Shown here one piece after another: positions 6,207 through 31,370 of a stretch of 64,000 nucleotides of DNA. This DNA is from Chloroflexota bacterium. GTDB taxonomy: Bacteria; Chloroflexota; Anaerolineae; Anaerolineales; UBA11579. The position numbers and the translations under genes are program-made. The notes under the pieces are model-generated. The model saw only the letters and a program-made list of their open reading frames with translations. It was not told the DNA's origin and made no database searches. Positions within the stretch are counted from its first letter, which is position 1, and every line of letters begins with the position of its first letter. The stretch spans positions 152,898-216,897 of the forward strand of contig JABFGG010000003.1 in the NCBI GenBank assembly GCA_013112575.1, in the 5' to 3' direction.

Positions 6207-6770
6207 ATGGCGAAGGATTATGCCCAGATGGGCTACACTGAAATGCGGCGCGAAGACCGGGCAGTTGAAGATGACGCCTGGATCAAGGCGTATTTAGGGG
6301 AAGCGGCGATGGGGGTACTGGCGACCTCTTACGAAGGCCAGCCTTTCATTAACAGCAACCTATTCGTGTACGACGAGGTGGAACACGCCATTTACATGCA
6401 TACGGCGCAGGTGGGCCGCACGCGGGCCAACCTTGATGCCAACCCCAGGGTGTGTTTCCATACCTTCAGCATGGGACGCTTGTTGCCTGCTGATGAAGCC
6501 CTGGAATTCAGTGTGGAATATGCTGGGGTGATGGTGTTTGGGGAAGTGGTTATCGTGGAGGAGAACGAAGAAAAGGAACGTGGTTTGCAGCTTTTGCTGG
6601 ATAAATACGCCCCACATCTGCGCCCTGACCGTGATTATCGCTCAATCACCCCAGAGGAATTAAAACGCACTGCAGTGTATAAGATCAGGATCGATGAATG
6701 GGTGGGGAAGAAAAAGGAAGTTGAAGAGGATTTTCCGGGTGCGTTCATATATAATGAAAATGGAAAGTAG
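6207..6770 (+). CDS. pyridoxamine 5'-phosphate oxidase family flavoprotein
   Basis: N-terminus MRREDRAVEDDAWIKAYL..MGVLAT is typical of the Pyridox_ox_2 family. RBS GGAGAG upstream. Confidence 0.75.
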   Translation: MAKDYAQMGYTEMRREDRAVEDDAWIKAYLGEAAMGVLATSYEGQPFINSNLFVYDEVEHAIYMHTAQVGRTRANLDANPRVCFHTFSMGRLLPADEALEFSVEYAGVMVFGEVVIVEENEEKERGLQLLLDKYAPHLRPDRDYRSITPEELKRTAVYKIRIDEWVGKKKEVEEDFPGAFIYNENGK

Positions 6771-7959: not shown

Positions 7960-8937
7960 TTAAGGGATGGGAAGGACCCCATCACTGACTTTGCATTGGA
8001 TGGCTTCAGTGGGAGTTGGGATTATTGTTTCATCAATAAAAGTATTACCGTGTTCATTCAAGGCTTCGAAAGGCCAAAGAGGTCTGACGAGCACTTCATA
8101 GGTTAGATTTCCTTGACTATAAATGCCGTTCTTGATTTCTTTTGCCAGCCAATCAGTAACAAAATCCCCTTCGATAATTATTGGATATGAATCAATAATT
8201 GGAATGCCCTCTATAAACTCTTCGACCTCTGGGTGTTGCTCTCTACGAATCTGAACTAATTGATCTAAAGACATTGTGTTAATGGGCCAGGCTTGGCTAT
8301 TTATTTCTCCATAAGGAGTTTGCAACCACAGAATCAATTTTTCAGGTTGGTAAGGCTCTAGACCTATGGGCGAGAAGGATGCAAGAAGCTTGTATGTATC
8401 CGCTATGGCAGGCAATACGACGGGGGGCGGAGAGGGCCAGAGCCATTCATCAAGATCAAAATCCCAAACAAACCTTTCAAGGGCTTGATTCCATGAGGTA
8501 TTTGATCGCCAGCTGTCTACGGCAATGTGGGTATATTGAGATCCCTCAAAGGGGGGACGATATGTAGTGTAGTCATAATCAAAATATCCAACTTGGTCAA
8601 TTGTGTTAAGCAATTTACAGGTTTCTTCTCTAGATAAGGCCTTAGTTAATGGTTTAAATGTAAACCATTCTGATTGCGGGTTGGAAATAATTAGTTGCTT
8701 GTCCCCAAATAAGATTAGTTCTGGAGGAAAGTCATAGGAGCCACCACCATCACCAGGAGATTTATCTACAAATATTTGAATTGATTGAGGCACCCATGTG
8801 TGATCTTGTAAAGGAGGCACGAGTGTACTTGTCGGTGAAGGTGTAAGTAGGCTATGTTTAAAAGCTTCGTTGGTCAACTCAAAAGGAAAAGGTGTTTTTG
8901 GAGTGGGAGTGTGACTTGGGATGCTGCCGGCATGCAC
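7960..8937 (-). CDS. hypothetical protein; probably the body of a frameshifted lipoprotein gene (see findings)
   Basis: 325-aa ORF with no signal peptide. Its frame stays open upstream to 9120 without a start codon. The adjacent 8874..9143 ORF supplies a lipoprotein signal in another frame. Confidence 0.45.
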   Translation of the reverse strand: MHAGSIPSHTPTPKTPFPFELTNEAFKHSLLTPSPTSTLVPPLQDHTWVPQSIQIFVDKSPGDGGGSYDFPPELILFGDKQLIISNPQSEWFTFKPLTKALSREETCKLLNTIDQVGYFDYDYTTYRPPFEGSQYTHIAVDSWRSNTSWNQALERFVWDFDLDEWLWPSPPPVVLPAIADTYKLLASFSPIGLEPYQPEKLILWLQTPYGEINSQAWPINTMSLDQLVQIRREQHPEVEEFIEGIPIIDSYPIIIEGDFVTDWLAKEIKNGIYSQGNLTYEVLVRPLWPFEALNEHGNTFIDETIIPTPTEAIQCKVSDGVLPIP

Positions 8938-10759: not shown

Positions 10760-11677
10760 ATGAGAAAGGTTTTACTATTATTAGGTTTGAGTGTCTGGCT
10801 GCTGGCGGCCTGTAACTTTAGCGGGGGCCAGGCTGCTGATACATTAGATGTGAACGCGGCCAGTACACAAGTAGAGCTAACTGTAGCGGCCCAGTTTACC
10901 AGTGACCAGAGCGCGATTGAAACCATTGTAGCGGGGACTGCAGGGCCGGATGGGCAAGCGCCCCCTCCACCACCCCCGGATCAGAATCAGGATGAGCCAC
11001 CTCCACCCCCATCGCCTGAACCCACTGCCACCGAGACGGTTGCCGAAACGCCAACCGAAACAACAACACCGACCCCTCAACCAACCGCAACGCTCTCCGG
11101 GGATGACCCGAAAAAAGACCTGGGCGCGCCCAGTTGGACCGATAATTTTAGCAATAGTAATAACTGGTTTGGTTATGATGAAGGGGACTCAAAGGTCGAG
11201 GTCAAGGGAGGCAAGTTGGAATTCACCGTCAAGCCTGCCTCTTCTGGAACTTTATGGACTGTTGCCCTGCCGGATCTGAGTAACTTCTATATAGAAGTTA
11301 TTGCCAAGACACCTGCCGCGTGTAGTGGAAAGGATCGTTATGGTCTATTGTTGCGTGCGCCTGATCCCAGTAAAGGCATGATCTTTGAGTTCTCATGTGA
11401 TGGATCCTATCGCATCGCCAAATGGGATGGTGCCACCTGGAGTGAGATAAAAAGCTGGACAGCCAGCGGCAATATCAATGCCGGGCCAGACCAGACCAAT
11501 CGCATGGGCGTTAAGGCTGTGGGCAATACCTTCCAATTGTACGTAGATGGAGTTTTGTTAACCGAGGTGACGGACAACGAGTTCGGCTCCGGGCGTTTTG
11601 GGTTGGTGGCTGGCTCTGATGCGACGGCCAACCTGCTGATCGAGTTTGATGATATGGCCTATTGGAATTTGCCGTAG
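10760..11677 (+). CDS. lipoprotein with Pro-rich linker and C-terminal jelly-roll (DUF1080/LamG-like) domain, paralog 1
   Basis: Lipobox LLAAC, PPPPPPDQNQDEPPPPPSP linker. The C-terminal domain ends GRFGLVAGSD...FDDMAYWNLP, shared with the 13447, 14252 and 18766 genes. Confidence 0.7.
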   Translation: MRKVLLLLGLSVWLLAACNFSGGQAADTLDVNAASTQVELTVAAQFTSDQSAIETIVAGTAGPDGQAPPPPPPDQNQDEPPPPPSPEPTATETVAETPTETTTPTPQPTATLSGDDPKKDLGAPSWTDNFSNSNNWFGYDEGDSKVEVKGGKLEFTVKPASSGTLWTVALPDLSNFYIEVIAKTPAACSGKDRYGLLLRAPDPSKGMIFEFSCDGSYRIAKWDGATWSEIKSWTASGNINAGPDQTNRMGVKAVGNTFQLYVDGVLLTEVTDNEFGSGRFGLVAGSDATANLLIEFDDMAYWNLP

Positions 11678-13446: not shown

Positions 13447-14121
13447 GTGAAACCTTTGAAACAAACCCGTTTATTCTTTTTTGGTCTGGCGATATTGCTG
13501 GCCTCTGTAGCCTGTGGCCTGGGTGATGTAACCGGCTTGATCGGTGGAGGCGGGGCATCTGGCCCAGAAGGCTCTGTATACTATGATGACTTTTCGAGTA
13601 CGTCGAGTGGTTGGGCCCAGTATGATGACTTCGATGGCATCAATGACTACGCCGATGGCACTTACCGTATCCTGGTGAACGACACTGAGTATTTCTCCTG
13701 GAGCATCATCGACGAAACTTTCAGTGATGCCAGTATTGAAGTTCAGGTTGTGGGAATGGGCGGCCCCTTTGATGCCGAGGCTGGCATTATATGCCGCTAT
13801 GTGGACGATAATAATTTCTATTTAATGACCATCACTGCGGATGGGTTCTATGCCATTTCGAAGTTCGTCAATAATGAATTCACAGCGCTAACCGGTAATG
13901 GTGATTACGCTGAAAGCAGCCTTATCAATCAGGGTAATTCGAGCAATGCCTTGCGTGCGGACTGTGTTGGTTCAACTCTGAGCCTGTATGTGAATGGGAC
14001 ACTGGTGGACTCGGTAACTGACTCGTCTTTAACCAGTGGTGATGTTGGTCTGGTAGCCGGTACGTTCACCGAACCGGGGTCTGATATCATTTTCGACGAC
14101 TTTACTGTTTATAACCCCTAA
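13447..14121 (+). CDS. lipoprotein consisting of the jelly-roll domain alone, paralog 2
   Basis: GTG start after GAGGAGGAAGAA. Lipobox LASVAC. Ends GDVGLVAGTFTEPGSDIIFDDFTVYNP. Confidence 0.7.
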   Translation: MKPLKQTRLFFFGLAILLASVACGLGDVTGLIGGGGASGPEGSVYYDDFSSTSSGWAQYDDFDGINDYADGTYRILVNDTEYFSWSIIDETFSDASIEVQVVGMGGPFDAEAGIICRYVDDNNFYLMTITADGFYAISKFVNNEFTALTGNGDYAESSLINQGNSSNALRADCVGSTLSLYVNGTLVDSVTDSSLTSGDVGLVAGTFTEPGSDIIFDDFTVYNP

Positions 14122-14251: not shown

Positions 14252-15532
14252 ATGATGTTCAAGCAATGTGTGACCTTGCATAAATCCTGGTTTTCTATCC
14301 TTCTGCTGGCATTTTTTATAGGTGCCTGTGCAGCCCCGCCTACCGCGGAAGAGGATAAATCCTTGCCGGTTTTGCCTACCCTGCCAACCGAAGAAGAAGA
14401 TGTGCTTGCGCCTCCCGCTTTGGTGGTTCCTGAGGAAGAAGTCAATCCCATAGAAGAAAGCAGCGGACAACAAAGCCCTCAAGAATTGCTGGAGGCCGGC
14501 AATGCTGCAGAAGTGGCAGGTGATCTCGAGTCTGCATTGGGCTATTATGACCTGGCAATCCAGACAGCTCCAGAATACCCGGAAGCGTATTACACGCGGG
14601 CGCGTTTGTTCGCCGATTTGGCCCAGCCCTTGCTGGCGATAGAAGACTATAACCGGGCTATCGAACTGCAGCCGCAATGGGCATTAGCTTTCTATGGGCG
14701 CGGCGTGGCTTATTTTAATGCGGGAGACGGACAGCAGGCTGTGCTGGACCTGTCGGAAGCGATCCGCATCGATCCCACTATTGCCGAGGCCTACCGCGAT
14801 CGCGCCATTGTGGAACGCGGTTTGTACCTGCCCGAGTCGGTGATCGCTGATTTGCAAGTGTATCTGGCGCTGGCCCCTGATGCAGAAGACCGGCCGGATA
14901 TTGAAGCCTTGATTGGTGAATTGGAAGATGAGATTCTGCGCCTTGAAGTTTCTACGGAAGGCTTACCCTTTTTTGACGATTTCAGTGACAACTTGGCAAG
15001 CTGGTTCGACTCTACCGTACCGGAGTTGGGTGAAGTGGGCGAGGGCAAGCTGGACAGCGGCGGCTATCGTATTACCGTTGATGATGATCGTTTTGCCATT
15101 TGGGCGCGTACCGGGGCAAGTTTTACTGATATAGCTATTAATGTAGATGCGACCAAAGTTGGGGGGGATGATGATAATTTTTATGGTGTGATCTGTCGCT
15201 ATCAGAATATTGAGAATTTTTATGCTCTACTGGTGAGCAGTGATGGCTTCTATGGCATCGCCAAACGCCTTGACGGGGGTTCATTGGAGGCTTTCCGCGG
15301 TGGTCTGGAGCCAAGTGATGTGATCAATAAGGGCAGCGGGACCAATCGCATTCGGGCAGTGTGTGCACAGAGTACGATCAAGCTGTACGTCAATGATGTG
15401 TTGTTGATGCAGGTCACGGATAGCTCGATTCCCTTTGGGGACGTGGCGATGATCGCGGGTACTTACGATGTGCCCGGTACGGATATCCTGTTTGACAATT
15501 GGCAGGTAGAAGCGGCTTTGCCAACAGATTGA
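14252..15532 (+). CDS. lipoprotein with TPR repeats and C-terminal jelly-roll domain, paralog 3
   Basis: Lipobox FIGAC. About 4 TPR units (AYYTRARLF..., AFYGRGVAYF..., AYRDRAIV). Ends GDVAMIAGTYDVPGTDILFDNWQVEAALP. Confidence 0.75.
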   Translation: MMFKQCVTLHKSWFSILLLAFFIGACAAPPTAEEDKSLPVLPTLPTEEEDVLAPPALVVPEEEVNPIEESSGQQSPQELLEAGNAAEVAGDLESALGYYDLAIQTAPEYPEAYYTRARLFADLAQPLLAIEDYNRAIELQPQWALAFYGRGVAYFNAGDGQQAVLDLSEAIRIDPTIAEAYRDRAIVERGLYLPESVIADLQVYLALAPDAEDRPDIEALIGELEDEILRLEVSTEGLPFFDDFSDNLASWFDSTVPELGEVGEGKLDSGGYRITVDDDRFAIWARTGASFTDIAINVDATKVGGDDDNFYGVICRYQNIENFYALLVSSDGFYGIAKRLDGGSLEAFRGGLEPSDVINKGSGTNRIRAVCAQSTIKLYVNDVLLMQVTDSSIPFGDVAMIAGTYDVPGTDILFDNWQVEAALPTD

Positions 15533-18610: not shown

Positions 18611-18765
18611 GGTAAACCTAGTATTTTTAGAATTAGTATTGAATTTTCATGGTTGATGAGCTGTTTGTCAAGCTTACACATCACTAAGCTAATTGATATG
18701 GCTCATTGGCTAAGGTATAGTTAGACTGAGGTAGTTGGTTGGGAGGCCCATTGCAAGGAGCGGAT

Positions 18766-19569
18766 ATGAGATCTGATGATCGCTTGGTTTTGACCTGTTT
18801 CGCAATCGTACTTGGATGTGGAGTTCTGATGGCATGCCTGGTAACGATGGGGAGCATAGGAATGATCGGGTGGACAGGCACAGTTCTGCAAGAGACATCG
18901 CAAGCCTACCAGACTAAAGCGGTCGAAACCGAGCAAGCTTACCAGGTAGATATCAAAGAAGCAGAAATGCTGTTTGATGAAGCTAAAGATTGGGAAGTTG
19001 TATTTAGTGATAGTTTTGATACAAATGAGAATGGCTGGGAGGATGACGCGTTTTCTTATGACTTGGTAGAAGGGGAGGTTGAGGTTGCCGATGGCAAGTA
19101 TTATTGGGATATGGAAGCCATTGAAGGTTTTATCTATTACGATTACCCTGAAATTGATGTTTTGGATGATTTTTACGTTGAAGTGGAGGCTGAACAATCT
19201 CGCGGTCCGGTCAATGGACAATACGGCTTAATATTTCTATATGCCAGCGGCAATTACTATTACTACTTTACAATCACTGAAGATCGCCGTTTTCAAGTTT
19301 ATCTACTCAGAGTCGGAAAGTGGGAAAGTATCATTCCACTCACTTTTAGTGAAGCGATCCAACCGGGAGAAAAGAATAAGCTGGCAATCATAGCAATAGA
19401 GGAAGACCTTTACTTTTATATCAACGACGCCTTCGTGCAATACGTTGGTAGTTCGTTATTGCTTCGCGGTCGAGTGGGGCTACTCACTGGTTTAAGGTTG
19501 GAAGGCGACACAGCTGAATTCGCGTTTGACAATTTTGAAGTGCGCGTACCGCCAGACGCGGGGGAATAA
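18766..19569 (+). CDS. membrane-anchored protein with C-terminal jelly-roll domain, paralog 4
   Basis: ATG at 18766 after AAGGAG. TM anchor LVLTCFAIVLGCGVLMACLV. Ends GRVGLLTGLRLEGDTAEFAFDNFEVRVPP. Confidence 0.65.
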   Translation: MRSDDRLVLTCFAIVLGCGVLMACLVTMGSIGMIGWTGTVLQETSQAYQTKAVETEQAYQVDIKEAEMLFDEAKDWEVVFSDSFDTNENGWEDDAFSYDLVEGEVEVADGKYYWDMEAIEGFIYYDYPEIDVLDDFYVEVEAEQSRGPVNGQYGLIFLYASGNYYYYFTITEDRRFQVYLLRVGKWESIIPLTFSEAIQPGEKNKLAIIAIEEDLYFYINDAFVQYVGSSLLLRGRVGLLTGLRLEGDTAEFAFDNFEVRVPPDAGE

Positions 19570-20160: not shown

Positions 20161-22317
20161 TTAGGGGCAGATCACTTGTTGTTGCTGATTGAGATAACAG
20201 GGGATGGGTGTGTCCTCCGGTGCGGGCCGGTCGGATGTGGGCTTTGGTGTGGGGGTGGGTGGCTGCGGGACAGTAATCAGGCGCATCTCACTGAATGGAA
20301 TGCTGGGCGTGACGTCATCGCTATCCAGCCAGCAGTTGGTGTTGGCTACGTTGGGGTGAGAAGCTACCAGCCAATCTTGATTGCCATTGCCGGTGAAACC
20401 AGCACCGATCAATTGCGTTGATACACCCGAAGCTAAATTGCTGACGAGGCCATATTGCGGCCCAGGGCCGTTGTAACAGGGTGTAGTTGTAATGATGGTT
20501 ACTGTGCTGGGGCCGCCGGGTGTGGGGGTGCCGATGACAATGTCTGGGTCTTCCAGGGTCAGGAGGCTGGCACCAGTTTCGTAAGCGCCCGCATCACAAC
20601 TTGCTCCAACCGGGCGGCCAAAAGTACGTTGATCTTCCCCTAAACAAGAGCCGACCACGATGTCTACGGCTTCACTATCTGGGTCCAGGGCCAGGGTCCA
20701 GGTTTCGCCGCCATTGTCAGCCAGTGGGCCAATGCGCAATTCGGCGGGGGTAAAAGTCTCCGGGAAACCGCAGGTAGCATCGGAATCAACATTAGTGCCC
20801 TGTAGCGGGAAAGGAATGGCGCTGGGGCCGCTGCTGATGTTGCAGTCATCTAGACCATTTTCGGCGGCTAAGATACTGCGCACGAGGCTGACAGTATTTC
20901 CCCCCCTGAAGGCGGAAAGGCCAGATTCCCCGTTACGGGCGAGGGTGACAAAGCGCATAGCCAGGTCGCCATCGACTGCAATAATGCCGCTGTTGGTGTT
21001 TCCGGTGCTGGTTGAATTCAGCATGGTCATGTCGCCACGGTTTTCGATGCCGTCAAGTTCATTGTCGGCGATAAGGCTGCGATTGATGTAGGCTCGGGCG
21101 AGCGTGCCATTGTAGATGCCAGCATTACCGCCGTCATTCGCTCTGATGGTAGAGTCGAGAACCACTAAGTCGCCCGTTTCTGTCTGGTTCAGGATGCCGC
21201 CATTATGGTTATTTTCGATCAAGGAAGAATAAACGCGCAGCCAGCCCCGGCTTCCAATGCCGCCACCCAGGCTGGTGCCAGCATAGAAAGAGGCATTGTC
21301 GCGAACGGTGACCTCTTCAAGTGTGGCTTCGCTGGTTTCATCAATGAGGATGCCTGTGCGCGGGTTACTGTAAACGTTTCCTCCATTCATGGTGAGAATG
21401 GCATCGTCACTTAGTACGATACCCTCTTCATTCTCGAAGACATCTGTGTTTGTCAGGGTCGCTAAGCCCCCATCGATCCACAGGCCGGGATGATTCATGC
21501 TAAGGATATTGCCGTGCCCGCTGATATCTACACCCGTCAGGTTAGCGGTACCACTACTATAGACACCATAGGTGCCATTGTCCCTGACGATAGTGCCATT
21601 CATGGCCAGCAGGCCAGCGCTGCTGACCCCTGACATATAGTTGTTGGCAACTTCGCCACCCTGAATGTCCAGGTTGCCGCCAGAAACCCCGGCCCCGAAA
21701 GAGCCCTCAAGCTGAGTGGTGCCTGTCACATTTACGTTGATGAGCGTAACTAGGCCGGAACTGGAACTGCGGATGCCGTTGCCAATGCTGTCGACTACAT
21801 TGACATCTTCAACTATCACATCGGCGTTACCGCGAATTTCAATACCACTGCCGGGAGAATTGCCTGAGGCATTCTGGACTGTGAGATCTTCGATACGCAC
21901 GCGGGCGTCACCTGAAGCATAAAAAACTCCATACAATCCGCCGCCATCAATGAAGGTGCTGTCGCGGCCAGCTCCGGTAATGATCAAATTGTAGTCAATG
22001 CCCAGGGCGCTGGAACCTTCACGGAAACCTGTTTCAGGATAGGTTCCGGCAGCAATGAAGATTTGATCGTCATCGTCTGAGCGGGAAACGGCCTCTTGTA
22101 CAGTCAGGCAGGGGTCGTCAATGAAGGCACAGGAATTGCTGTCATCACCATCTGTGGCAACATACCACAAAGATGACTCTCGTTCTTCAGAAATGCCCGG
22201 TGTAGGGGTGCTGGTAGGCAAATTGCCCAGGATGTCCCGGGCCAGGTCCAATGGGCCGCAGGCCAGGGCTGTGAGCGTCATGGCGAAGACGCTGATGATA
22301 AGCTTTTTCTTGTACAT
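20161..22317 (-). CDS. right-handed parallel beta-helix lipoprotein with choice-of-anchor-Q-like region and C-terminal SH3-like/PT-linker/Cys-loop module (H1)
   Basis: Lipobox LTALAC. Many beta-helix repeats (N.A..GGGI-like turns). LADNGGETWTLAL...GEDQRTFGRPVGASCDAGAYE. The C-terminal approx 105 aa is shared with H2 and the sigma fusion. Confidence 0.8.
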   Translation of the reverse strand: MYKKKLIISVFAMTLTALACGPLDLARDILGNLPTSTPTPGISEERESSLWYVATDGDDSNSCAFIDDPCLTVQEAVSRSDDDDQIFIAAGTYPETGFREGSSALGIDYNLIITGAGRDSTFIDGGGLYGVFYASGDARVRIEDLTVQNASGNSPGSGIEIRGNADVIVEDVNVVDSIGNGIRSSSSGLVTLINVNVTGTTQLEGSFGAGVSGGNLDIQGGEVANNYMSGVSSAGLLAMNGTIVRDNGTYGVYSSGTANLTGVDISGHGNILSMNHPGLWIDGGLATLTNTDVFENEEGIVLSDDAILTMNGGNVYSNPRTGILIDETSEATLEEVTVRDNASFYAGTSLGGGIGSRGWLRVYSSLIENNHNGGILNQTETGDLVVLDSTIRANDGGNAGIYNGTLARAYINRSLIADNELDGIENRGDMTMLNSTSTGNTNSGIIAVDGDLAMRFVTLARNGESGLSAFRGGNTVSLVRSILAAENGLDDCNISSGPSAIPFPLQGTNVDSDATCGFPETFTPAELRIGPLADNGGETWTLALDPDSEAVDIVVGSCLGEDQRTFGRPVGASCDAGAYETGASLLTLEDPDIVIGTPTPGGPSTVTIITTTPCYNGPGPQYGLVSNLASGVSTQLIGAGFTGNGNQDWLVASHPNVANTNCWLDSDDVTPSIPFSEMRLITVPQPPTPTPKPTSDRPAPEDTPIPCYLNQQQQVICP

Positions 22318-22351
22318 GGTTTAGATCCTCTCTCTCGTGAGTTCTACTTAA

Positions 22352-22380
22352 TAAACGTATTCAGGTCAAATTTGTTATCA
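22352..22380 (-). promoter_or_regulatory. candidate ECF-type promoter TGATAAC-N16-CGTTTA for H1
   Basis: The reverse complement of 22374-22380 is TGATAAC and of 22352-22357 is CGTTTA. Lies about 35 nt upstream of the ATG. Confidence 0.45.
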
Positions 22381-22422
22381 ATTTTCTGTGCAGTATTACG
22401 TGTAGATGATTGATCTACTTTG

Positions 22423-23196
22423 TTACTTCTTCGTGAAAATGTGCCCGCAAAGGGGAGTTGTTGCAGAACCGAAGGGTGGTGAACCCAACCAGATATCGCT
22501 CAAAATCAGACGGCCTTGATCATCGATCAGGTAGGTTCCGGTGCCGTCGATGTTCTCGGGGAGATAATTGACGCCATCAGCTTGAATTTTGATGGTCTCT
22601 GTATCAAAACTGTATTCTCCGACATAATCGATGTAGGCTTCAAAGGGCCGCCAGGTGACACTGAGGCTGCCGTCGGCAGAGAAGATGAGTTCGCCAATGG
22701 GTTCCTCTACTGAGGTTTCATCGTAAGTGTCACATGTTTGTTGGGCCTTCTCTGTCCAGATGCCGACGAGCGGGTTGCCATCTAAGGAATAAACGGTGAC
22801 CTTTTCTTCGAAGACCTGCTGGCCTGAGGAAACAGAGGCTTGTACAGTGAAAGTCGCTCCGTTACCGACTTCGTCATCGGCAGTTAACAAACCGGTTTGT
22901 GTATCGATCTCGACTCCCTTTGGGGCATCTGCCAGAGACCAGTCTGCACTGGCTTCCACTGTTTCCCAGAATACACAACATTCAAGGGTAGCAAGCCTTA
23001 ATTCCAGTTGTCCGCCTGCTTCGATTTGCAGATTGCCACTTACGGGTGGACCTTCGATCTTTTGGGGGACTATTGAGATGGCCTCTGCATTCTCAAGGGT
23101 CGGTTGGGCGACCTGGCCGACTGAAGAACATGCCAGGGTGGCTACCAACAGTGCCAAAATGCTGATCCAATACCTTTTTATATAGATTGCTTTCAT
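22423..23196 (-). CDS. lipoprotein of unknown function, downstream of H2
   Basis: ATG at 23194-23196 after GAGGAGA. Signal/lipobox LLVATLACSS. The track start at 23265 adds an unlikely 23-aa extension. Confidence 0.6.
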   Translation of the reverse strand: MKAIYIKRYWISILALLVATLACSSVGQVAQPTLENAEAISIVPQKIEGPPVSGNLQIEAGGQLELRLATLECCVFWETVEASADWSLADAPKGVEIDTQTGLLTADDEVGNGATFTVQASVSSGQQVFEEKVTVYSLDGNPLVGIWTEKAQQTCDTYDETSVEEPIGELIFSADGSLSVTWRPFEAYIDYVGEYSFDTETIKIQADGVNYLPENIDGTGTYLIDDQGRLILSDIWLGSPPFGSATTPLCGHIFTKK

Positions 23197-23268
23197 GTTT
23201 AAACTCTCCTCTGCTCTAAAGGTAAACCCTTTTAGGAAGAATTTGTAACAGTTCTTGAGGGCCATAGC

Positions 23269-25479
23269 CTAGCAGGTGGGCACGCCGTTGCCGTTCAAGG
23301 GACACGGAGTAGGATCTTTGGCCGGTTCACGCGTCTCGTCCGGGGTAGGGAGGGGCGTGGGTGTGGGGCGGGCGGGAACGGTTATCAAGCGCATTTCGCC
23401 CAGTGGGATGCCAGTCGTGACGTTGTCGCCGGGCAGCCAGCAATTGACATTTTCGGCTGTAGGATGCGTGCCTACTACCCAGGCCTGATTGCCATTGCCG
23501 GTAAAACCTGCGCCGACCAATTCCATGGTGGTGCCTGCCGAGAAGTTATTGACAAAGCCCCAATCCGGGCCGGGGCCTGTGTAGCAGGGGGTGTCGGGGA
23601 TAAGCACGGTAATAGTAGTGGCGCCTCCCGGCTCTTCTTCGGCTGCTGTTGCAGGCGCCGCAGCAACAGCACCAGTCTCGTAAGCACCTACATCGCAACC
23701 TGCACCTACAGGTCGACCAAAATCACGCTGGTCTATAGGAGGACAGCTTCCGGTAGCAGCGTCGATGGCAGGGCTACTGGCTAACAAAGCATGAGTCATG
23801 GTCAGGCCGCCATTATCTGCCAATCCACCAAGGAGCAGGGCTGTGGGGGAATAGGTGGCTTCTACGCCGCAAGAGCCATCTGTATCGATGTTGACGCCGG
23901 AAGTAGTGCTGCCCTCCAGGCTAAGGAGGTTGATGCAGTCACTGGGAGCGTTGCGGGCGATGATGGTGTTGTCGACGTTGATGCCGGAAGTCAAAATGCC
24001 GAACTGGGTGTTCTCGGCGATGGTGGAGTAGGAGATCGTGGAATTGCCCCATAAGTATGCTCCCAACCCATTATTGTTGCTGATGGTGGTGTTGAGAATC
24101 CGAATCTCTCCGTCGCCTTCTACGCCTGCCCTGAAGCCCTCACCCGCAGCACCCTCAAGGGAGTTGTGCGCGATGAGGCTGTTATCGATGTGGAGAATGC
24201 CACCCAAGTTATAGATGGCGGGATAAGGCTCTTCGGGGTATACACTAGAGTAAAGGACATTGGTATAGCTCATATCCACAGTGCCGGTGGAATCATTTCT
24301 GATGGCTCCATCGCGATTGCGGAGCAATTCACTGTGGGTTATGGTCAGTGCCCCAAAATTGCTGATCGTCCAATTGCGCGGGCCGAGGGTGCCATTGTTC
24401 TCGAAGGTAGTCCCTTCAACGGTTGCCGACCCAGTGTCGGAGATGGAAAGGGCGGTTCCTGGATGATCGCGAACCGTGCTATCGATTAAGGTCAGGCTGC
24501 CGCCGGGGGAGACGTGGATGCCCCTATCGTTCTCCCGGATATTGCTGTTGTCGATCTGCATGGTGCTGTGGGTATCGATGCCGTAAAGATTGGCAGGCGC
24601 AAGATGGTTGTGGTGAACTCCAACAAAACTCAATTGCGCCGTCCCCATGCGGTGTTCGAGCCCCGCGAACTGATTCTGGGTCAGGGTCGTGCCTGTCAGG
24701 CTGATATTGCCCCAATTGAATATGCCAGTCTTATCGTTAGCAGCGATCTCCCCTCCATCGACGGTCATATCACCGAAATTGAGGATGCCGTGCTCGTGCC
24801 AGGTGCTCTCTGCCGGGCCGAAGCCCAGACCGTGTGCCCCGCTGATGTTGACGTTGATCAGCTCAACAGGCCCACTGCCGCGGTTCTCCACACCATTGCC
24901 AACGCAATCCACGAGGTTGACATCGACAACGCGTATTTCTGCGGTGGAGGTTTCCCCAATGTCGATGCAGTCACGTGCATTTTGTAGGGTCAGGTCCCGA
25001 ATAATGATGCGGCCTGCGCCGTCTATGGGGAAACCATTACTAACTTCGCCATCCACTCTGCGGTTAATGATGGTTGAGTCTGTGCCGGCGCCCATGATGG
25101 TGATGTTTCCCTCAAGTGAGCGGTAATAACTGTCATCCATCGTGTAGGTGCCTGGGCCAATGCGGACCACATGGTGGTTACGGCCTTCGGGGTCTGTCAC
25201 CGACAGAGCCAGACTAAGCGCGCGACCAACCGTTGCGCAAGGTGCAGGTTGGCAGTTGTTGAGATCTGATCCATCCGTGGCAACATGCCATTCCTGGATG
25301 AACAAATCGATGCCACCAACCGGTTCAGGTGGCGGACCACTTACCAGGGTCGGCGGCACGTCGATGATTGGCAATGGCGTTGGGCCTCCCAAAGTGCGAG
25401 GCATGTTGCAGGCTGTGAGTACCAATAATGTCAGAATGGCAATAGCAAAACTAAATTTCTTCTTGTAGGCAGGGTTCAT
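23269..25479 (-). CDS. right-handed parallel beta-helix lipoprotein, paralog of H1 (H2)
   Basis: Lipobox LVLTAC, beta-helix repeats, LADNGGLTMTHAL...IDQRDFGRPVGAGCDVGAYE, and the same C-terminal module as H1. Confidence 0.8.
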   Translation of the reverse strand: MNPAYKKKFSFAIAILTLLVLTACNMPRTLGGPTPLPIIDVPPTLVSGPPPEPVGGIDLFIQEWHVATDGSDLNNCQPAPCATVGRALSLALSVTDPEGRNHHVVRIGPGTYTMDDSYYRSLEGNITIMGAGTDSTIINRRVDGEVSNGFPIDGAGRIIIRDLTLQNARDCIDIGETSTAEIRVVDVNLVDCVGNGVENRGSGPVELINVNISGAHGLGFGPAESTWHEHGILNFGDMTVDGGEIAANDKTGIFNWGNISLTGTTLTQNQFAGLEHRMGTAQLSFVGVHHNHLAPANLYGIDTHSTMQIDNSNIRENDRGIHVSPGGSLTLIDSTVRDHPGTALSISDTGSATVEGTTFENNGTLGPRNWTISNFGALTITHSELLRNRDGAIRNDSTGTVDMSYTNVLYSSVYPEEPYPAIYNLGGILHIDNSLIAHNSLEGAAGEGFRAGVEGDGEIRILNTTISNNNGLGAYLWGNSTISYSTIAENTQFGILTSGINVDNTIIARNAPSDCINLLSLEGSTTSGVNIDTDGSCGVEATYSPTALLLGGLADNGGLTMTHALLASSPAIDAATGSCPPIDQRDFGRPVGAGCDVGAYETGAVAAAPATAAEEEPGGATTITVLIPDTPCYTGPGPDWGFVNNFSAGTTMELVGAGFTGNGNQAWVVGTHPTAENVNCWLPGDNVTTGIPLGEMRLITVPARPTPTPLPTPDETREPAKDPTPCPLNGNGVPTC

Positions 25480-25514: not shown

Positions 25515-25543
25515 TAAACGTAATAAGGGCCAAATAGTTATCA
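25515..25543 (-). promoter_or_regulatory. candidate ECF-type promoter TGATAAC-N16-CGTTTA for H2
   Basis: Same motif and spacing as upstream of H1. The about 70-nt leaders of H1 and H2 are nearly identical. Confidence 0.45.
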
Positions 25544-25819
25544 TTTTTCTTGTTTCCTGACATCTTTGGGTGATTTGACAGTGATCTTGATCTCAATAGA
25601 TGTGTCCTCATTCTCGTTCTTCTCCACTACATGATGGCGAAAAGTGTAGTTTCCAGTTTGATTTGTTTGTTGTTCTAAAAAGTCCAAAAGTTCGTAAATA
25701 GAGGCAAAATTGTTTCGTTCCTCTTTCCCTGGCTCTTCCAGCGAGGCTCGCCAAACTAACTGACCTTGTTCTTCAAGCTGCCATAAGCGCAGCATATAAG
25801 CCAGATAATCAGGCGGCAC
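25541..25819 (-). CDS. small hypothetical protein (LRLWQ...WRASLE...FASIYELLDFLEQQ motif)
   Basis: 92-aa ORF with a GTG start and no clear RBS. The N-terminal motif recalls a small conserved-hypothetical family, from memory only. Confidence 0.35.
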   Translation of the reverse strand: MPPDYLAYMLRLWQLEEQGQLVWRASLEEPGKEERNNFASIYELLDFLEQQTNQTGNYTFRHHVVEKNENEDTSIEIKITVKSPKDVRKQEK

Positions 25820-26003: not shown

Positions 26004-28043
26004 ATGGAAGAAAAAGCGATAAGCATCCGTTTACTGGGATCATTCCAGGCTGAGTTGGGCGAAGGGCAGAAAGCCACATTTCGTTCCGATAGTGAACGCG
26101 CCCTATTGGCATTTCTCCTGATGGAAAAAGATCGCCCGCATCGCAGAGAGAGCCTGGGGGCTTTACTGTGGCCAGAAGTTAGCGAAAAACAAGCGCGCAA
26201 CAATTTGAGGGTGGCTTTACACCGCATGCGCCAGACGATGGAGGCCAATGGGCGGGAAGTCGTAATTGCCAACAACCGCGAACTGCAATTTAATGAAGAT
26301 GCGGATGTATGGTTGGATGTGTGGGCTTTTGAAGATGCCTTGCAGTCCGTGGAGTCTCATGACCATAAGGGCCTGGAAAGTTGTGTCAAGTGCCAGGAAA
26401 AACTCAGTGAAGCTGTTGAGCTTTACCGTGGCCCCTTTTTGCAGGGCTTCATGCTGGAAGATAGCCAGCCTTTCCTTGAATGGGTAGTTTTAAAGCAAGA
26501 ATGGTTACACCGCCAGGCATTGGAAACACTGGCAATACTTGCTGATGTACACGTGGCTTTGGAAGATTATGAGAAGGCAGAAGCCTTTGCGCGACGCCAA
26601 CTGACTCTGGAGCCCTGGAGAGAAGAGGCACATCGCCAACTGATGCATGCTCTGGCTCTGCGAGGTGAACGCAGTGCGGCGTTGGCACAATATGAAAGCT
26701 GCCGGGCTGTTCTGGAAGAAGAGTTGGGCGCGCCGCCTTCCGATACGACTGAGAAGCTTGTAGAAAGAATCCGTAGTGGAGAAGGTTATAGTGAAGAGCA
26801 AAGGGGTAGTACGAGAGTTAAACGAAAAGTTGAATTGACTGCAAGCACACGAGGATTCGACCGCCGTTGGCTTGTTGGCATAGCAGGAGTTGTTTTGTTG
26901 GTTGTGTTGGGTATTGTTGGCTTCGGAAGCATTTGGAGTAATTCCAAAAATGAAAAAAGGGGAGGGATTGCCTGGGAGTTTGAAGATGCGGGCGATACAG
27001 AAGGTTGGGTGCCTTTATATGACCTTGGCCCTTTGACCGTAAGAAGAGGACAACTGCATATCAATTCAACGGGTGATGACCCTTATTTATATATCCCGGA
27101 AGGTGTGGCATTCGATGCTCGAGAGCATCCGTTAATAGAGATGCGGATGAAAGTGTCTGATGGATATGTGGCCCAGGTGTTTTTCCACAATGAAGGTGAA
27201 ATTGATTTTGTGGAGGACAAATCTCAAGTTTTCCCCATTGTCCCAGACGGGGAGTTTCACACTTATATGCTTGATATGTCTGCACAGGATGGGTGGCAGG
27301 GTATGATCAGTGGGCTGCGCCTTGACCCCACGGATACAGTGGCTTCCGTGGAAATTGACTATATCCGCATTGTTCCCAAGGTAGAGGCGGAGAGCGCAGG
27401 TTTAATTGGGGGAAACGTGTATGACAATTTCAACGAACTGGGCTTCGATGGAGCCTATGATTCGGGCAAGTGGATCGAGCCGGATTGGCCGGGGTTAAAA
27501 TGTGAGATCTTCCAGCAAGATGGTGTGTTGCGGGCCTCTAATCATGAATCATTGATGGGATCGGGATGCACTTTTCGAGCCAAGCGACCGCTGGCAGTTG
27601 CTGGCGGTGAATTGGGCGATTATGCGGCAGATCTTCAACTGCTTGATACTCACAATGGCGGCTTTGCAGGGACCGTGTTGCGCATAACGACTGAGTTTGA
27701 AGGCGGGGGCTGGGCGGCGAGTTGTGGAATATTGGCGGATTTTGATGCCCTGAACGTGCAGTTTGACGTCAGCGATGCGCGGCTTAGCGAAGACGATTTT
27801 TTGTATCAGGCGAACCTTCCGGCTGACTACAATACCTGGTACGAAGTTGTGCTGCAAATTGATGAAGGGGCAAAGCGAATTACGTGCATGGTGGATGGAC
27901 AGGTTGTTGGGGAATACCTGCCCGAGAATGCTACCGAACTGGCTTCCGCTCTGATGAATCGCGAACTCGGTGTGTGGCACGAAACAGATGCTATGGCCAC
28001 CACGCTAATCGATGATGTCGAAATCCAAGTGAATTCAAGATAG
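26004..28043 (+). CDS. membrane-anchored SARP/BTAD-family transcriptional regulator with extracytoplasmic LamG/jelly-roll-like sensor region
   Basis: OmpR-type winged helix (IRLLGSFQAELGEG...LRVALHRMRQ), BTAD (LYRGPFL...EEAHRQLMHALALRGERSAALAQYESCRAVLEEELG), one TM helix (WLVGIAGVVLLVVLGIVGF), then about 370 aa outside. Confidence 0.75.
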   Translation: MEEKAISIRLLGSFQAELGEGQKATFRSDSERALLAFLLMEKDRPHRRESLGALLWPEVSEKQARNNLRVALHRMRQTMEANGREVVIANNRELQFNEDADVWLDVWAFEDALQSVESHDHKGLESCVKCQEKLSEAVELYRGPFLQGFMLEDSQPFLEWVVLKQEWLHRQALETLAILADVHVALEDYEKAEAFARRQLTLEPWREEAHRQLMHALALRGERSAALAQYESCRAVLEEELGAPPSDTTEKLVERIRSGEGYSEEQRGSTRVKRKVELTASTRGFDRRWLVGIAGVVLLVVLGIVGFGSIWSNSKNEKRGGIAWEFEDAGDTEGWVPLYDLGPLTVRRGQLHINSTGDDPYLYIPEGVAFDAREHPLIEMRMKVSDGYVAQVFFHNEGEIDFVEDKSQVFPIVPDGEFHTYMLDMSAQDGWQGMISGLRLDPTDTVASVEIDYIRIVPKVEAESAGLIGGNVYDNFNELGFDGAYDSGKWIEPDWPGLKCEIFQQDGVLRASNHESLMGSGCTFRAKRPLAVAGGELGDYAADLQLLDTHNGGFAGTVLRITTEFEGGGWAASCGILADFDALNVQFDVSDARLSEDDFLYQANLPADYNTWYEVVLQIDEGAKRITCMVDGQVVGEYLPENATELASALMNRELGVWHETDAMATTLIDDVEIQVNSR

Positions 28044-28214: not shown

Positions 28215-29675
28215 TCAGGGGCAGTATTGCTGCTGGTCTATGGCACAATCCGTAGGTTGTGGATCGTCACCAGGTTGGCGGGGGTCGTCTGGGGTGACGG
28301 TGGGTGTAGTTGTGGGTTTGGGAGGAATGAAGATGTAAGGAAGAACAGGGTTATCTTCGTCCAGGCTGATATCCCCCGCAATCAGCCAGCAATTCACATT
28401 CTCGATGTCCGGATGCGGTCCAACGTAATAAGGAACGTTAAAGCCCTCCCCAACAATCTTGATCTGAGTGCCAGCGGTGAGAGTGTTGACAATACCCCAC
28501 TGTAAGCCGGGACCTGAATAGCAGGTTGTATCTTCTTCTGCGGTTCCCAAAACTTCATCATCATCATCTGCTGGTTCATCCCCACCATCTGGTGGGAGGG
28601 GCGGAGAAACGTTCTCTGAATTCTCTGGGGTGCCTTCGAGCGCGGCGGTTGACAACGGTGTTTCTGTAATGAAAAGGGCTTCGACAGCTTCTTCTTCCGT
28701 TTCCTCTGGGGCTTCTACAGGCGCCACCGGAGGGGGAGGTGGTGGAGGGTCAAATATGGCCGCGAAAAGATTACTTTGTAAGGCTGCAATAACGCCTAGC
28801 ACGATAGTGGATGCAACGATGGCTACGCCACCGCCAGCAAGGACCTTGGGGCGGGCATTGCGCCAGCGTTTTCTACGGCGAAGGCGCTGCGTAGTGCCTG
28901 TGCGTTTGAGGATGCGCGGGCCCAAGCCAGCGGGCGGGATGAGCGGGATGAAGGCACTGAAGATCGTGGATACCGAAAGAAGATTGCGCTGGCGTTCCTG
29001 GCAGTATTCACAATCTTTGACATGCTGGCGGACGAGACGATCCTGAGCGCTGTCGGCTTCATTGTCATGGATGACGCCGATAAGTTCGCCCATGGTGGAA
29101 CATTCGGTGGAGGTTTCTTCCAGCAGCAAGCGAATGCCATAGGCTTCCTGGAATTTGTTGCGAGCACGATGGAGCAGAACCTTGACGTAGTCAATGGTAG
29201 TCTCCATGATCTCGGCGATCTCGTTGTAAGCATATTTGTGAAACTCGCGCAACAATAAAACCTCACGATACTGGGGGGCCAGTTTCTCTAGGGTTTTGCG
29301 CACACGTGCGGCAATATCGCCTTGAGAGGCAGCGCGTTCCGGGTCATTGTTGGGATCGCGGATGTTTTCAATCTGGTCGGCGGAATCGATCATATCGCGG
29401 TTCTGTCGGGTCTCATCAATAAAGCGATTGTGAACGATGCGAAAGACCCAGGCGCGGAAATTGTAGGGTGGGCCAAGACGCTTAAGGTTAGCGTGGGCGC
29501 GTATGAAAGCATCTTGTGTAAGGTCTTCGGCCCAGTCCTGATCATAAGCGAGGGTAACCGCATAGTTATAAACCGCCTGGAAATGCTCTTCAAAGAGATC
29601 TGCAAAAGCTTGCGGATCGCCCTGGGCGGCTTGCTGCACGAGGCGAGCATTAAGGTCAGTATGTGAGTCGTTCAC
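28215..29675 (-). CDS. ECF sigma factor fused to zinc anti-sigma (HxxxCxxC), TM helix and extracytoplasmic SH3-like module
   Basis: Region 2 (DLTQDAFIRAH...WVFRIVHNRFID), region 4 (QYREVLLLREFHKYAYNEIAEIM), HVKDCEYC, TM VLAGGGVAIVASTIVLGVIAAL, PPPPPPP linker. The C-terminal module is homologous to the H1/H2 termini. GTG start. Confidence 0.8.
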   Translation of the reverse strand: MNDSHTDLNARLVQQAAQGDPQAFADLFEEHFQAVYNYAVTLAYDQDWAEDLTQDAFIRAHANLKRLGPPYNFRAWVFRIVHNRFIDETRQNRDMIDSADQIENIRDPNNDPERAASQGDIAARVRKTLEKLAPQYREVLLLREFHKYAYNEIAEIMETTIDYVKVLLHRARNKFQEAYGIRLLLEETSTECSTMGELIGVIHDNEADSAQDRLVRQHVKDCEYCQERQRNLLSVSTIFSAFIPLIPPAGLGPRILKRTGTTQRLRRRKRWRNARPKVLAGGGVAIVASTIVLGVIAALQSNLFAAIFDPPPPPPPVAPVEAPEETEEEAVEALFITETPLSTAALEGTPENSENVSPPLPPDGGDEPADDDDEVLGTAEEDTTCYSGPGLQWGIVNTLTAGTQIKIVGEGFNVPYYVGPHPDIENVNCWLIAGDISLDEDNPVLPYIFIPPKPTTTPTVTPDDPRQPGDDPQPTDCAIDQQQYCP

Positions 29676-29685
29676 GTTTATCTAA

Positions 29686-29715
29686 ATAACGGGGTTTAGT
29701 GGGGTTTTGTTATCA
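29686..29715 (-). promoter_or_regulatory. candidate autoregulatory ECF-type promoter TGATAAC-N17-CGTTAT
   Basis: The reverse complement of 29709-29715 is TGATAAC and of 29686-29691 is CGTTAT. It lies only about 10 nt before the GTG start, implying a very short leader. Confidence 0.4.
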
Positions 29716-29876
29716 ATTTATTAGAAATTGGTTTTATGTAGTTGGTGCTTGCTAAAAGGCACTAGTTTTGACTATTCAGACTGTACCGCATTTGAGAAAA
29801 GAACGCAATGAGAGGAGGGTTTTATAGGCATCTTTCGCAGATTAGCAAAAGTACAGAAAGGTATAATCTGGCGGCA

Positions 29877-31370
29877 ATGGACAAGCAGCGAAGAAAATGG
29901 CTATGGCCAACAACACTGGGTGCTATCGCTTTACTGGGATTCGGATTGGTGTGGGCCAGTACGATCTGGGGGGCGGGTTTGATATCCGATTCTTTCCAGT
30001 ATGTATCCACGGCGCGTAACCTGGCAGGCGGGTTGGGTTTCCAGTTTGAGGTTGGAAAGAGTTTATTGCCCCTGGTGCATTACCCGCCTTTGTTTCCTTC
30101 TGTACTGGCAGGTTTTGAGATTGCGGGAATCGATGCTTTATTGGGAGCAAGGTTGATCAATGCCCTGCTTTTTGGGGCCAACGCTGTTTTGGTGGGTGTG
30201 AGCATAGAGAAAATCACAGCGTCCAAAGTCTGGGGGAGTATAGGCGCTTTGTTGACAGCAATTGCGGCAGTATTGCTGGGAGTACATAGTTGGGCGTTGA
30301 GTGAGCCTTTGTACATTTTCCTTGGTTTAGTAGGGTGGTTGATTTTGTCACAGTATCTGGAAAATAATCAATTGCGATTGCTCGTAGCAGCCAGTGGATT
30401 ATTTGGATTGGCATTTTTGGCTCGTTATGCTGGGGTAGCGATCGTAGTAGCAGGCGCGTTGGCAGTATTGCTTTTCTCTACTCAGAACTGGCGGAAGCGC
30501 GGGATGGATGCCGCGCTGCTAGGCATCATCAGCGTGAGTGTGTCAGGTCTGTGGGCCGTGCGCATCACATTGCTGGCAGGTAGTTTTGGGGCGCGTGAAT
30601 TGCAATACATCCCGCTAACTGCCGGGAATATCGAATCCCTCTTGAACAATATCCTGACCTGGGTTGTGCCTTTCCCGCTGGTGAACGGGCGCGAGGCATG
30701 GATTTTATTTGGTTTATTTATCGGTCTAGTTGTTTTTGGCTTGTATGTGCGAGTGAGCGATTTGAAGGTAAAAGAGATAGTGTGGTCTGAAAAGACGTTG
30801 TTTCGATTGCATAGCCTGTATTTCTGGGTGTATCCGGTATCGGTTGTGGCGGCCAAGATGTTTTTGGATCGCGGCATAGGTTTGAATGACCGCATGCTCT
30901 CCCCGATGTTAGTGTCCCTGATGATCGTGGGCGTGAGTATTGTGGCACAAGTGTGGAAAATGGATCAACGGCGATGGGTACGTGTAGTATTGGTCAGCGG
31001 AGCGGTGCTGTTCACAGCCTTCTATGGGGTGGAAACAGGACTGGCCATGCGTAGTTTTCGTGGAGAGGGGTTGGGCCTGGCGCGGGCGGATTGGCACAGC
31101 GCAGAATCCATTCAAGCTTTTGCAGATTTTGAGGATGAGGAATTCTATTCCAATTCACCTTCATCGCTTTATTTGTGGAGTTACAAGCCTGCCAACAACT
31201 TAAATTCATTTGCGCGAATGGCGGCGAGTGCTGATCCGGACAGAGCTTATATCGTGGTGTTTGCTCACGTCCCCACCAATAAGAACATTGAAGAAATGGC
31301 TGAAGGAGTAGAATTGGTTGTGGGGGATGAGGTGGCTGAGGTGTATTTATTTGTGCCCGAGGGGGAGTAG
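29877..31370 (+). CDS. polytopic membrane protein, GT-C (ArnT/PMT-like) glycosyltransferase candidate
   Basis: About 12 TM helices. DS motif in the first extracytoplasmic loop (GLISDSFQYVSTARNL). Soluble C-terminal domain. The ATG at 29877 is preferred over the track start at 29808. Confidence 0.5.
   Translation: MDKQRRKWLWPTTLGAIALLGFGLVWASTIWGAGLISDSFQYVSTARNLAGGLGFQFEVGKSLLPLVHYPPLFPSVLAGFEIAGIDALLGARLINALLFGANAVLVGVSIEKITASKVWGSIGALLTAIAAVLLGVHSWALSEPLYIFLGLVGWLILSQYLENNQLRLLVAASGLFGLAFLARYAGVAIVVAGALAVLLFSTQNWRKRGMDAALLGIISVSVSGLWAVRITLLAGSFGARELQYIPLTAGNIESLLNNILTWVVPFPLVNGREAWILFGLFIGLVVFGLYVRVSDLKVKEIVWSEKTLFRLHSLYFWVYPVSVVAAKMFLDRGIGLNDRMLSPMLVSLMIVGVSIVAQVWKMDQRRWVRVVLVSGAVLFTAFYGVETGLAMRSFRGEGLGLARADWHSAESIQAFADFEDEEFYSNSPSSLYLWSYKPANNLNSFARMAASADPDRAYIVVFAHVPTNKNIEEMAEGVELVVGDEVAEVYLFVPEGE

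Follow-up and report, generated by a model that had tools for sequence, protein, structure and literature searches.

What takes the place of a sorting signal on a bacterial surface protein when none of the familiar ones follows its beta-helix? The question is raised by two genes in a 64,000-nucleotide stretch of a Chloroflexota bacterium (GCA_013112575.1, contig JABFGG010000003.1, positions 152,898 to 216,897; hereafter the window), which encode predicted lipoproteins of 718 (P1, 20161..22317(-)) and 736 (P2, 23269..25479(-)) amino acids, each made of a beta-helix, a choice-of-anchor Q segment and an SH3-like tail. The core of this tail is a divergent, disulfide-bearing bacterial SH3 (SH3b) domain, and the complete tail recurs on a third protein encoded nearby, P3, a fusion of an extracytoplasmic function (ECF) sigma factor with its anti-sigma element. 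We discuss below why the three genes may form a small regulon, and which other roles of the tail have to be weighed.

That the DQR...GAYE segment of both proteins is a choice-of-anchor Q region, as a preliminary description of the locus had proposed, was confirmed by an NCBIfam search: model NF041518 (choice_anch_Q; curated cutoff 25 bits) matches P1 with 57.3 bits (E 1.4e-15) at residues 528-581 (20575..20736(-)) and P2 with 77.8 bits (E 5.6e-22) at residues 549-602 (23674..23835(-)). Pfam Beta_helix (PF13229) matches the two proteins with 55.2 and 60.4 bits, respectively. P1 and P2 are exported right-handed beta-helix proteins whose helix terminates in the Q segment. Each begins with one hydrophobic segment that closes on a lipobox-like sequence (...LTALAC in P1, ...VLTAC in P2), suggestive of N-terminal lipidation, which is probable for both. 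No PDB relative of the beta-helix passenger was found by sequence. P1 is identical to NCBI entry KAA3643398.1, annotated as 'hypothetical protein [Chloroflexota bacterium]', and the sole reference-genome orthologue recovered in a scan of genome contigs, from an Anaerolineales metagenome-assembled genome (L003), keeps the full architecture.

Behind ...GAYE, P1 and P2 share a beta-rich domain of approximately 85 residues, then a Pro/Thr (PT) linker of some 20 residues, then a terminal C-x9-C loop. The domain occupies residues 601-685 of P1 (20263..20517(-); Cys614 and Cys662) and residues 617-703 of P2 (23371..23631(-); Cys632 and Cys680); linker and loop follow at 20164..20262(-) in P1 (…SDRPAPED…, then CYLNQQQQVICP) and at 23272..23370(-) in P2 (…DETREPAKD…, then CPLNGNGVPTC). 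A third complete copy of the tail (28218..28556(-)) lies outside the 20161-25479 interval that holds P1 and P2, at the end of the 486-residue P3 (28215..29675(-)), where the domain spans residues 374-453 (28317..28556(-); Cys385 and Cys429) and is followed by a linker (…DDPRQPGDD…) and the loop CAIDQQQYCP at 28218..28316(-). The tail domains of P1 and P2 are 59% identical, and that of P3 is 40-45% identical to either. The last 80 residues are devoid of any hydrophobic segment in all three proteins (maxima of the hydropathy measure KD19 of 1.0 in P1, 0.62 in P2 and 0.67 in P3), and the layout and the hydropathy together bear out the preliminary description of an SH3-like domain, PT linker and Cys loop lacking a terminal transmembrane (TM) helix.

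No Pfam or NCBIfam model covers the window tails. The gathering threshold of Pfam SH3_3 (PF08239, 27 bits) is reached by none of them: the third copy scores 13 bits (E 0.12) and the first two give no match. The fold was approached through an AlphaFold2 (AF2) model of the P2 tail domain. A first run with five sequences (pLDDT 66) was too uncertain for use; the final model, computed with a 40-sequence alignment, is all-beta with a pLDDT of 88.6 and a pTM of 0.79. In a Foldseek comparison of this model with the PDB, the best 50 of 545 matches (E <= 10) are all SH3 domains or SH3-domain-containing proteins, the best-fitting ones being SH3b domains of peptidoglycan hydrolases and related proteins (YrvJ, 9a7d, with TMq 0.63 and rmsd 2.2; also 2kt8, 2krs, 4krt, 3npf and 6biq). 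Sequence comparison led to the same superfamily. A profile of the tail domain run against PDB sequences retrieved the SH3b entries 8b2h, 8b2g and 2krs (E 0.003-0.013), in an alignment that pairs CYtGPG of the tail with NCRSGPG, and a profile built from the three window tails alone found, among its weaker matches, proteins whose matched segments are Pfam SH3_3 (e.g. P0035, P0036). The SH3 beta-barrel predicted by the model, the profile matches to SH3b domains of the PDB and the SH3_3 matches, through which homology to recognised SH3b members can be traced at the sequence level, identify the tail core as a divergent member of the SH3b superfamily, one whose window copies fall below the Pfam threshold. 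SH3b domains typically bind cell-wall polymers non-covalently.

The cysteines of this domain behave as a pair. Across 165 instances of the domain both are present in 139 and both absent in 16, leaving 10 discordant cases, and the extracytoplasmic cysteines of P1, P2 and P3 form sequential pairs. This co-occurrence and sequential pairing are consistent with disulfides in an exported protein; one disulfide would lie within the domain and another would close the nine-residue terminal loop.

How widely is the tail distributed, and on what kinds of proteins? Word-index homologue searches returned very few matches (2, 2 and 5); an exhaustive search with the tail-domain profile was productive and yielded 231 cluster representatives at E <= 1e-3. 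In the 148 relatives analysed in detail, nearly all complete N-termini show a signal or lipobox-like start, and the C-terminal hydropathy maximum (17-residue window) does not exceed 1.6 in 147, the exception being P0096 (1.9). The window subfamily, defined by the succession of domain, PT linker and two-Cys loop at the extreme C-terminus, numbers 30 relatives. Its carriers are chiefly choice-of-anchor Q beta-helices, and further include DUF1565-type beta-helices (P0019, P0021), a small TM protein (P0016) and sigma/anti-sigma fusions (P0007). The tail is seen solely on extracytoplasmic parts of proteins, so that the surface role put forward in the preliminary description does not founder on a predominance of cytoplasmic carriers. 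In most members of the subfamily the linker holds a lone Arg among acidic residues and Pro (EPRE, DPRQP, SDRPAPED), 4-15 residues ahead of the loop, and a semi-conserved motif, [DE]-P-R-[EQ]-P, can be written for it; the loop itself, usually of nine residues, has a high content of Q, N and P, and in 14 of the 30 its last residues are …C-P. The Arg motif is missing from other subfamilies. We note that this acidic-Pro-Arg motif could be a cleavage or recognition site.

Elsewhere among the relatives the SH3-like domain is also N-terminal, internal or in tandem, and some of the tandem-array or N-terminal carriers end in a PSI-like four-Cys motif. Other choice-of-anchor Q proteins bear the same SH3-like domain with a four-Cys GCLY…GACTP ending, or with an fn3-like domain ending in …GC[ILMF]x; Q-domain proteins as a group bear it with four different terminal motifs. 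Since the endings vary among carriers, the SH3-like domain appears as the constant element and the terminal Cys motif as a modular one. The alternative endings (CSQYNTNP..C..C.W..C.NKP, PSI-like, or GCLY…C…C…GACTP) likewise stand behind a PT linker in other SH3-like subfamilies; they were noted in P0028, whose ending gives a PSI match at E 3.5e-4, in P0030, P0037, P0046, P0048, P0052, P0085 and P0114, and also in P0039, P0062, P0065, P0067, P0087 and P0098-P0106. These exoproteins seem in general to end in disulfide knobs of this kind. One candidate for a stand-alone tail, a copy 76% identical to the P2 tail (P0001, L001:332-763), sits at a contig end behind a stop codon and unrelated GC-rich sequence; a chimeric assembly or a gene fragment may account for it, and it was not used as evidence.

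The third copy of the tail is carried by P3, which consists of an ECF sigma domain with regions 2 and 4 (residues 10-178, 29142..29648(-); TIGR02937, Sigma70_r2, Sigma70_r4_2), a ZAS-type zinc-finger anti-sigma segment (residues 197-226, 28998..29087(-)), a TM helix (residues ~277-309, 28749..28847(-); KD19 maximum 2.34), a Pro-rich/acidic spacer and the SH3-like tail. A TIGR02937 score of 105.4 bits (cutoff 42.9) places it in the ECF superfamily, and its best NCBIfam similarities are to SigM/SigY/SigW-type factors; ECF models match, and no SigI or RsgI family was reported for it. The zf-HC2 match to the anti-sigma segment is weak (E 0.049), and an H-x3-C-x2-C motif (HVKDCEYC) can be read there. 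Given that a basic cluster, RRRKRWRNARPK, precedes the single TM helix on its N-terminal side, the N-terminus is predicted to lie inside and the C-terminus, with the tail, outside. The orthologue P0007, 77% identical overall, retains the tail. Sigma domain, ZAS segment, TM helix, Pro-rich extension and extracytoplasmic binding domain in a single polypeptide is the layout of the ECF52-like one-component fusions. The literature describes ECF52 as confined to Actinobacteria and proposes proteolysis as its mode of activation (PMC5826349, PMC8999054). P3, whose host belongs to the Chloroflexota, is likely to represent an independent or related group, the likeness to ECF52 being one of domain layout.

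Are the three tail genes controlled together? A promoter-like site lies directly upstream of each, on the correct strand: TGATAAC-N16-CGTT at 22354..22380(-), 37 nucleotides upstream of the P1 ATG, and at 25517..25543(-), 38 nucleotides upstream of the P2 ATG, and TGATAAC-N17-CGTT at 29688..29715(-), 13 nucleotides upstream of the P3 GTG. As read, the sequences are TGATAAC-N16-CGTTTATTA for P1 and P2 and TGATAAC-N17-CGTTATTTA for P3. ECF promoters of the SigW/SigX/SigM type are marked by AAC at -35 and CGT at -10. With spacers of 15 to 18 nucleotides (TGATAAC-N15-18-CGTT), the pattern occurs three times on the two strands of the window, against 0.06 expected, and only at these tail-gene upstream sites. 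Because it had been derived from the same three sites, support was sought in other contigs. The motif with diverged spacers was found in related metagenome contigs upstream of a beta-helix homologue (L002:8015-8041) and of the sigma fusion P0007 (L006:290-317). A third such contig, L007, in which the spacers have likewise diverged, has two exact matches (6733-6760 and 8366-8392; 0.01 expected), belonging to a sigma fusion, again 13 nucleotides ahead of its GTG, and to a P2 orthologue; the P1 orthologue of this contig has the motif with one mismatch. In its extended form the motif of the window and its relatives reads TGATAAC-N16/17-CGTT(T)A. It was not found upstream of the more distant orthologue in L003.

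The linkage of the genes is conserved as well. On L007 the genes for the sigma fusion and for the orthologues of P2 and P1 lie side by side and point the same way, and within 20.6 kb no other copy of the SH3 tail occurs. When metagenomes were scanned with the sigma fusion, the matches were confined to distant ECF sigma factors (24-31% identity), and contig L008 has no tail domain. The shared promoter and the conserved linkage are suggestive of a functional coupling of the tail genes, and we infer that P3 is the sigma factor that reads the three promoters. The position of its own site, 13 nucleotides from the GTG, suggests autoregulation and a near-leaderless mRNA.

These observations bear on a first alternative, in which the tail has no specific targeting role and is a stable, protease-resistant spacer or end-cap common on the exoproteins of the phylum, acquired by P3 through domain shuffling among neighbours. 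Many Chloroflexota exoproteins among the matches do end in assorted small Cys-rich motifs past PT linkers, and the passengers are mostly of one type, the beta-helix, as such a reading would have it. Against it, the paralogues P1 and P2 are more alike in the tail domain (59% identity) than in the passenger (36%). The P3 tail, moreover, is an old paralogue of the other two (40-45% identity) and has been retained in orthologues of P3, and the common promoter and lasting linkage of the genes speak for a functional coupling. We regard this alternative as improbable.

A second alternative is that raised by the preliminary description, which saw in the tail a candidate lineage-specific anchoring or sorting domain. 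The part of this proposal that stands is that the tail is non-canonical, is covered by no model and is extracytoplasmic, and that anchoring through non-covalent binding is plausible; a processed sorting signal is unlikely. In the version that would give the linker motif and the Cys loop the leading part, dedicated machinery would attach the protein covalently or by a disulfide to the wall, sheath or S-layer, the tail filling the slot taken elsewhere by LPXTG, PEP-CTERM or T9SS signals. The position of the tail speaks for it. It directly follows the Q domain, where five close Q-domain homologues have one LPQTG-type end, one dockerin-like end, nothing in one case (P0164) and the SH3-like tail in two; the LPQTG, hydrophobic and basic end (P0166) and the dockerin-like repeats (P0163) were recognised by eye, are unconfirmed by Pfam or NCBIfam and were given little weight. 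The motif sits at the extreme C-terminus in 30 of 30 subfamily members, with the semi-conserved linker sequence and the frequent …C-P end noted above; every carrier is extracytoplasmic; and a folded domain can serve as a sorting signal, as does the C-terminal domain (CTD) of T9SS substrates.

The properties of the tail itself nevertheless argue against processing. Its core is a folded domain of the SH3b type, a fold known classically for non-covalent binding. The tripartite signal of short motif, TM helix and basic cluster is absent from the tails. Sorting-signal models of NCBIfam and Pfam give no match at E <= 1 in P1 or P2, whose Q domain is thus followed by none of the recognised signals (LPXTG, PEP-CTERM, T9SS CTD); such a signal usually accompanies the family, but the NF041518 model does not demand one. 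No sortase-like enzyme, nor any exosortase- or rhombosortase-like gene, was seen by Pfam or by reading among the approximately 20 neighbouring open reading frames (ORFs) examined between about 10 and 40 kb of the window. The SH3-like domain is internal or in tandem in other proteins and combines with several terminal motifs, and P1 and P2 already possess a predicted lipoprotein anchor. Finally, the full tail is found on P3, which is held in the membrane by its TM helix, needs no sorting and has a sensor as its outer domain, so that its possession of the tail counts against a sorting signal. A sorted domain like the T9SS CTD was considered separately and rejected for its lack of a model match, for its SH3 barrel in the place of the CTD beta-sandwich and for its internal and tandem occurrence. 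All told, we give a dedicated sorting or anchoring signal only a small chance.

A third alternative makes the tail a protein-protein module: the SH3-like domain would bind the Pro/Arg linker or the Cys loop of another tail, the exported proteins would thereby form a surface lattice, and P3 would sense the amount of P1 and P2, as a feedback, and not an envelope polymer. SH3 folds classically bind Pro-rich peptides with flanking Arg, most of the 30 subfamily members offer a single linker Arg in a Pro/acidic context, and domain, linker and loop are conserved as a unit on sensor and effectors alike. The nearest structural relatives of the domain, on the other hand, are found in wall hydrolases, and the ligand of those SH3b domains is peptidoglycan, not a PxxP peptide; the Arg motif is absent from the other subfamilies; and in the five-sequence AF2 run linker and loop were of low confidence (pLDDT <50 at residues 99-106) and were not docked on the domain. 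Such an interaction is accordingly on the unlikely side, if worth keeping in mind.

The reading we favour, at odds only slightly better than even, is that P1, P2 and P3 constitute an ECF52-like, RsgI-like sensor/effector regulon whose members share one SH3b-type recognition module. RsgI systems use as sensors modules of the kind that the regulated secreted proteins also carry. A single extracytoplasmic ligand would be bound by the tail, and by analogy with other SH3b domains a polymer of the cell wall or matrix is the likeliest candidate; in P1 and P2 the tail would target or retain the beta-helix on this ligand, and in P3 it would report the state of the ligand. Signalling would free the sigma domain of P3, probably through regulated proteolysis (proposed for ECF52, shown for RsgI), and the freed sigma domain would activate the P3 gene and both beta-helix genes. 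A binding domain offers no explanation for the Arg motif and the Cys loop that are conserved at the very C-terminus, even on P3. These unexplained elements keep two minority readings alive, an interaction of the SH3-like domain with the linker, as discussed above, and a TM-less attachment signal. In the latter, the acidic-Pro-Arg motif and the Q/N/P-rich disulfide loop would tie the protein to the wall or sheath of Chloroflexota, through a disulfide or a protease-mediated link, and P3, held in the membrane and attached to the wall through its tail, would sense the integrity of the envelope mechanically and control the effectors that bear the same tail. We consider this last idea a long shot.

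The regulon model has several precedents. The SH3b cell-wall-targeting domains (Pfam SH3_3 clan; e.g. endolysin Psm, 4krt; YrvJ, 9a7d; CPF_0587, 2krs; fungal muramidase, 8b2g) have the same fold as the window tails and a detectable sequence relationship to them, and are C-terminal non-covalent targeting modules of exported proteins, often in tandem. The window tails differ from these domains in scoring under the SH3_3 threshold, in an invariant Cys pair (CYxGPG … NCW), in the PT linker with its Arg motif and in the terminal disulfide loop. The likeness to the SH3-like GW modules of Listeria InlB and Ami is one of function, and no GW-module match was reported by Pfam. On the side of the sensor, the ECF52 protein SCO4117 of Streptomyces coelicolor has the same layout as P3, and both appear autoregulated. 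Its sensor is a carbohydrate-binding domain, whereas that of P3 is an SH3b domain shared with the regulated proteins, and its motif, CSGYN-17-SRHA, is not the one seen here (TGATAAC-N16-CGTT).

RsgI anti-sigma factors sense polysaccharides through binding modules (PMC10328401, PMC6852018). In the SigI/RsgI systems of Clostridium thermocellum an extracellular binding module on a membrane anti-sigma factor senses the polymer and proteolytic release activates the sigma factor (PMC10328401, PMC6852018, PMC4711584). There, sigma-I and RsgI are separate proteins and RsgI has a SEAL-type autoproteolytic domain, whereas P3 is one ECF polypeptide with a ZAS motif, and the analogy is functional only. 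The choice-of-anchor families, under the logic by which they are named (bioRxiv 10.1101/2023.03.06.531300), offer the remaining precedent: the Q domain ends the beta-helix of a surface-exposed protein and a variable element follows, as it does here. Where other members have LPXTG, PEP-CTERM or T9SS signals, P1 and P2 have a folded SH3b-type domain and no TM helix.

A number of other genes surround the three tail genes. A predicted lipoprotein of 257 amino acids (22423..23196(-)), for which no family match was found, is encoded between P2 and P1; a longer version of this ORF starts at 23265, 3 bp past the P2 stop. No counterpart of it is found among the genes called between the two beta-helix genes of L007. 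Between P3 and P2 lie a SARP/BTAD-family regulator (26004..28043(+); BTAD 90 bits, Trans_reg_C) with a TM segment and a large C-terminal extracytoplasmic region, which is absent from that position in L007, and a small ORF of 92 amino acids (25541..25819(-); …YMLRLWQLEE…WRASLEEPG…) that matches no Pfam or NCBIfam family, lies immediately ahead of the P2 promoter, in divergent orientation to the regulator gene. On the other side, a multi-TM protein with weak similarity to PMT_2 (GT39-like glycosyltransferase; 29808..31370(+)) is divergent from the sigma-fusion gene and could be linked to envelope glycan synthesis; L007 keeps a divergent neighbour, a 447-aa gene, in the same position. Further away, four exported or lipoprotein-like ORFs (10760..11677(+), 13447..14121(+), 14252..15532(+) and 18739..19569(+)) apparently have in common a C-terminal domain of ~180 amino acids and look like paralogues forming a local family; Pfam 3keto-disac_hyd (DUF1080-like) matches one of the four with 34 bits.

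Each novelty of this locus is related to a known kind: the SH3b subfamily is a divergent one, the ECF52-like fusion comes from outside Actinobacteria, and the proposed logic of sensor and effectors recalls RsgI. The analysis defines an unannotated, disulfide-bearing SH3b subfamily of at least 231 cluster representatives that is missed by Pfam and NCBIfam, and extends the ECF52-type architecture, as judged by domain layout, beyond Actinobacteria. To curators of the choice-of-anchor families it points to a non-covalent binding domain, and not a sortase-type signal, as the element that fills the position behind the Q domain in Chloroflexota. For a phylum little studied so far, it replaces two 'hypothetical proteins' by a proposed circuit of three genes that can be tested, made of a one-component ECF sigma sensor, a defined promoter motif and two surface beta-helix proteins that have the recognition module of the sensor in common.

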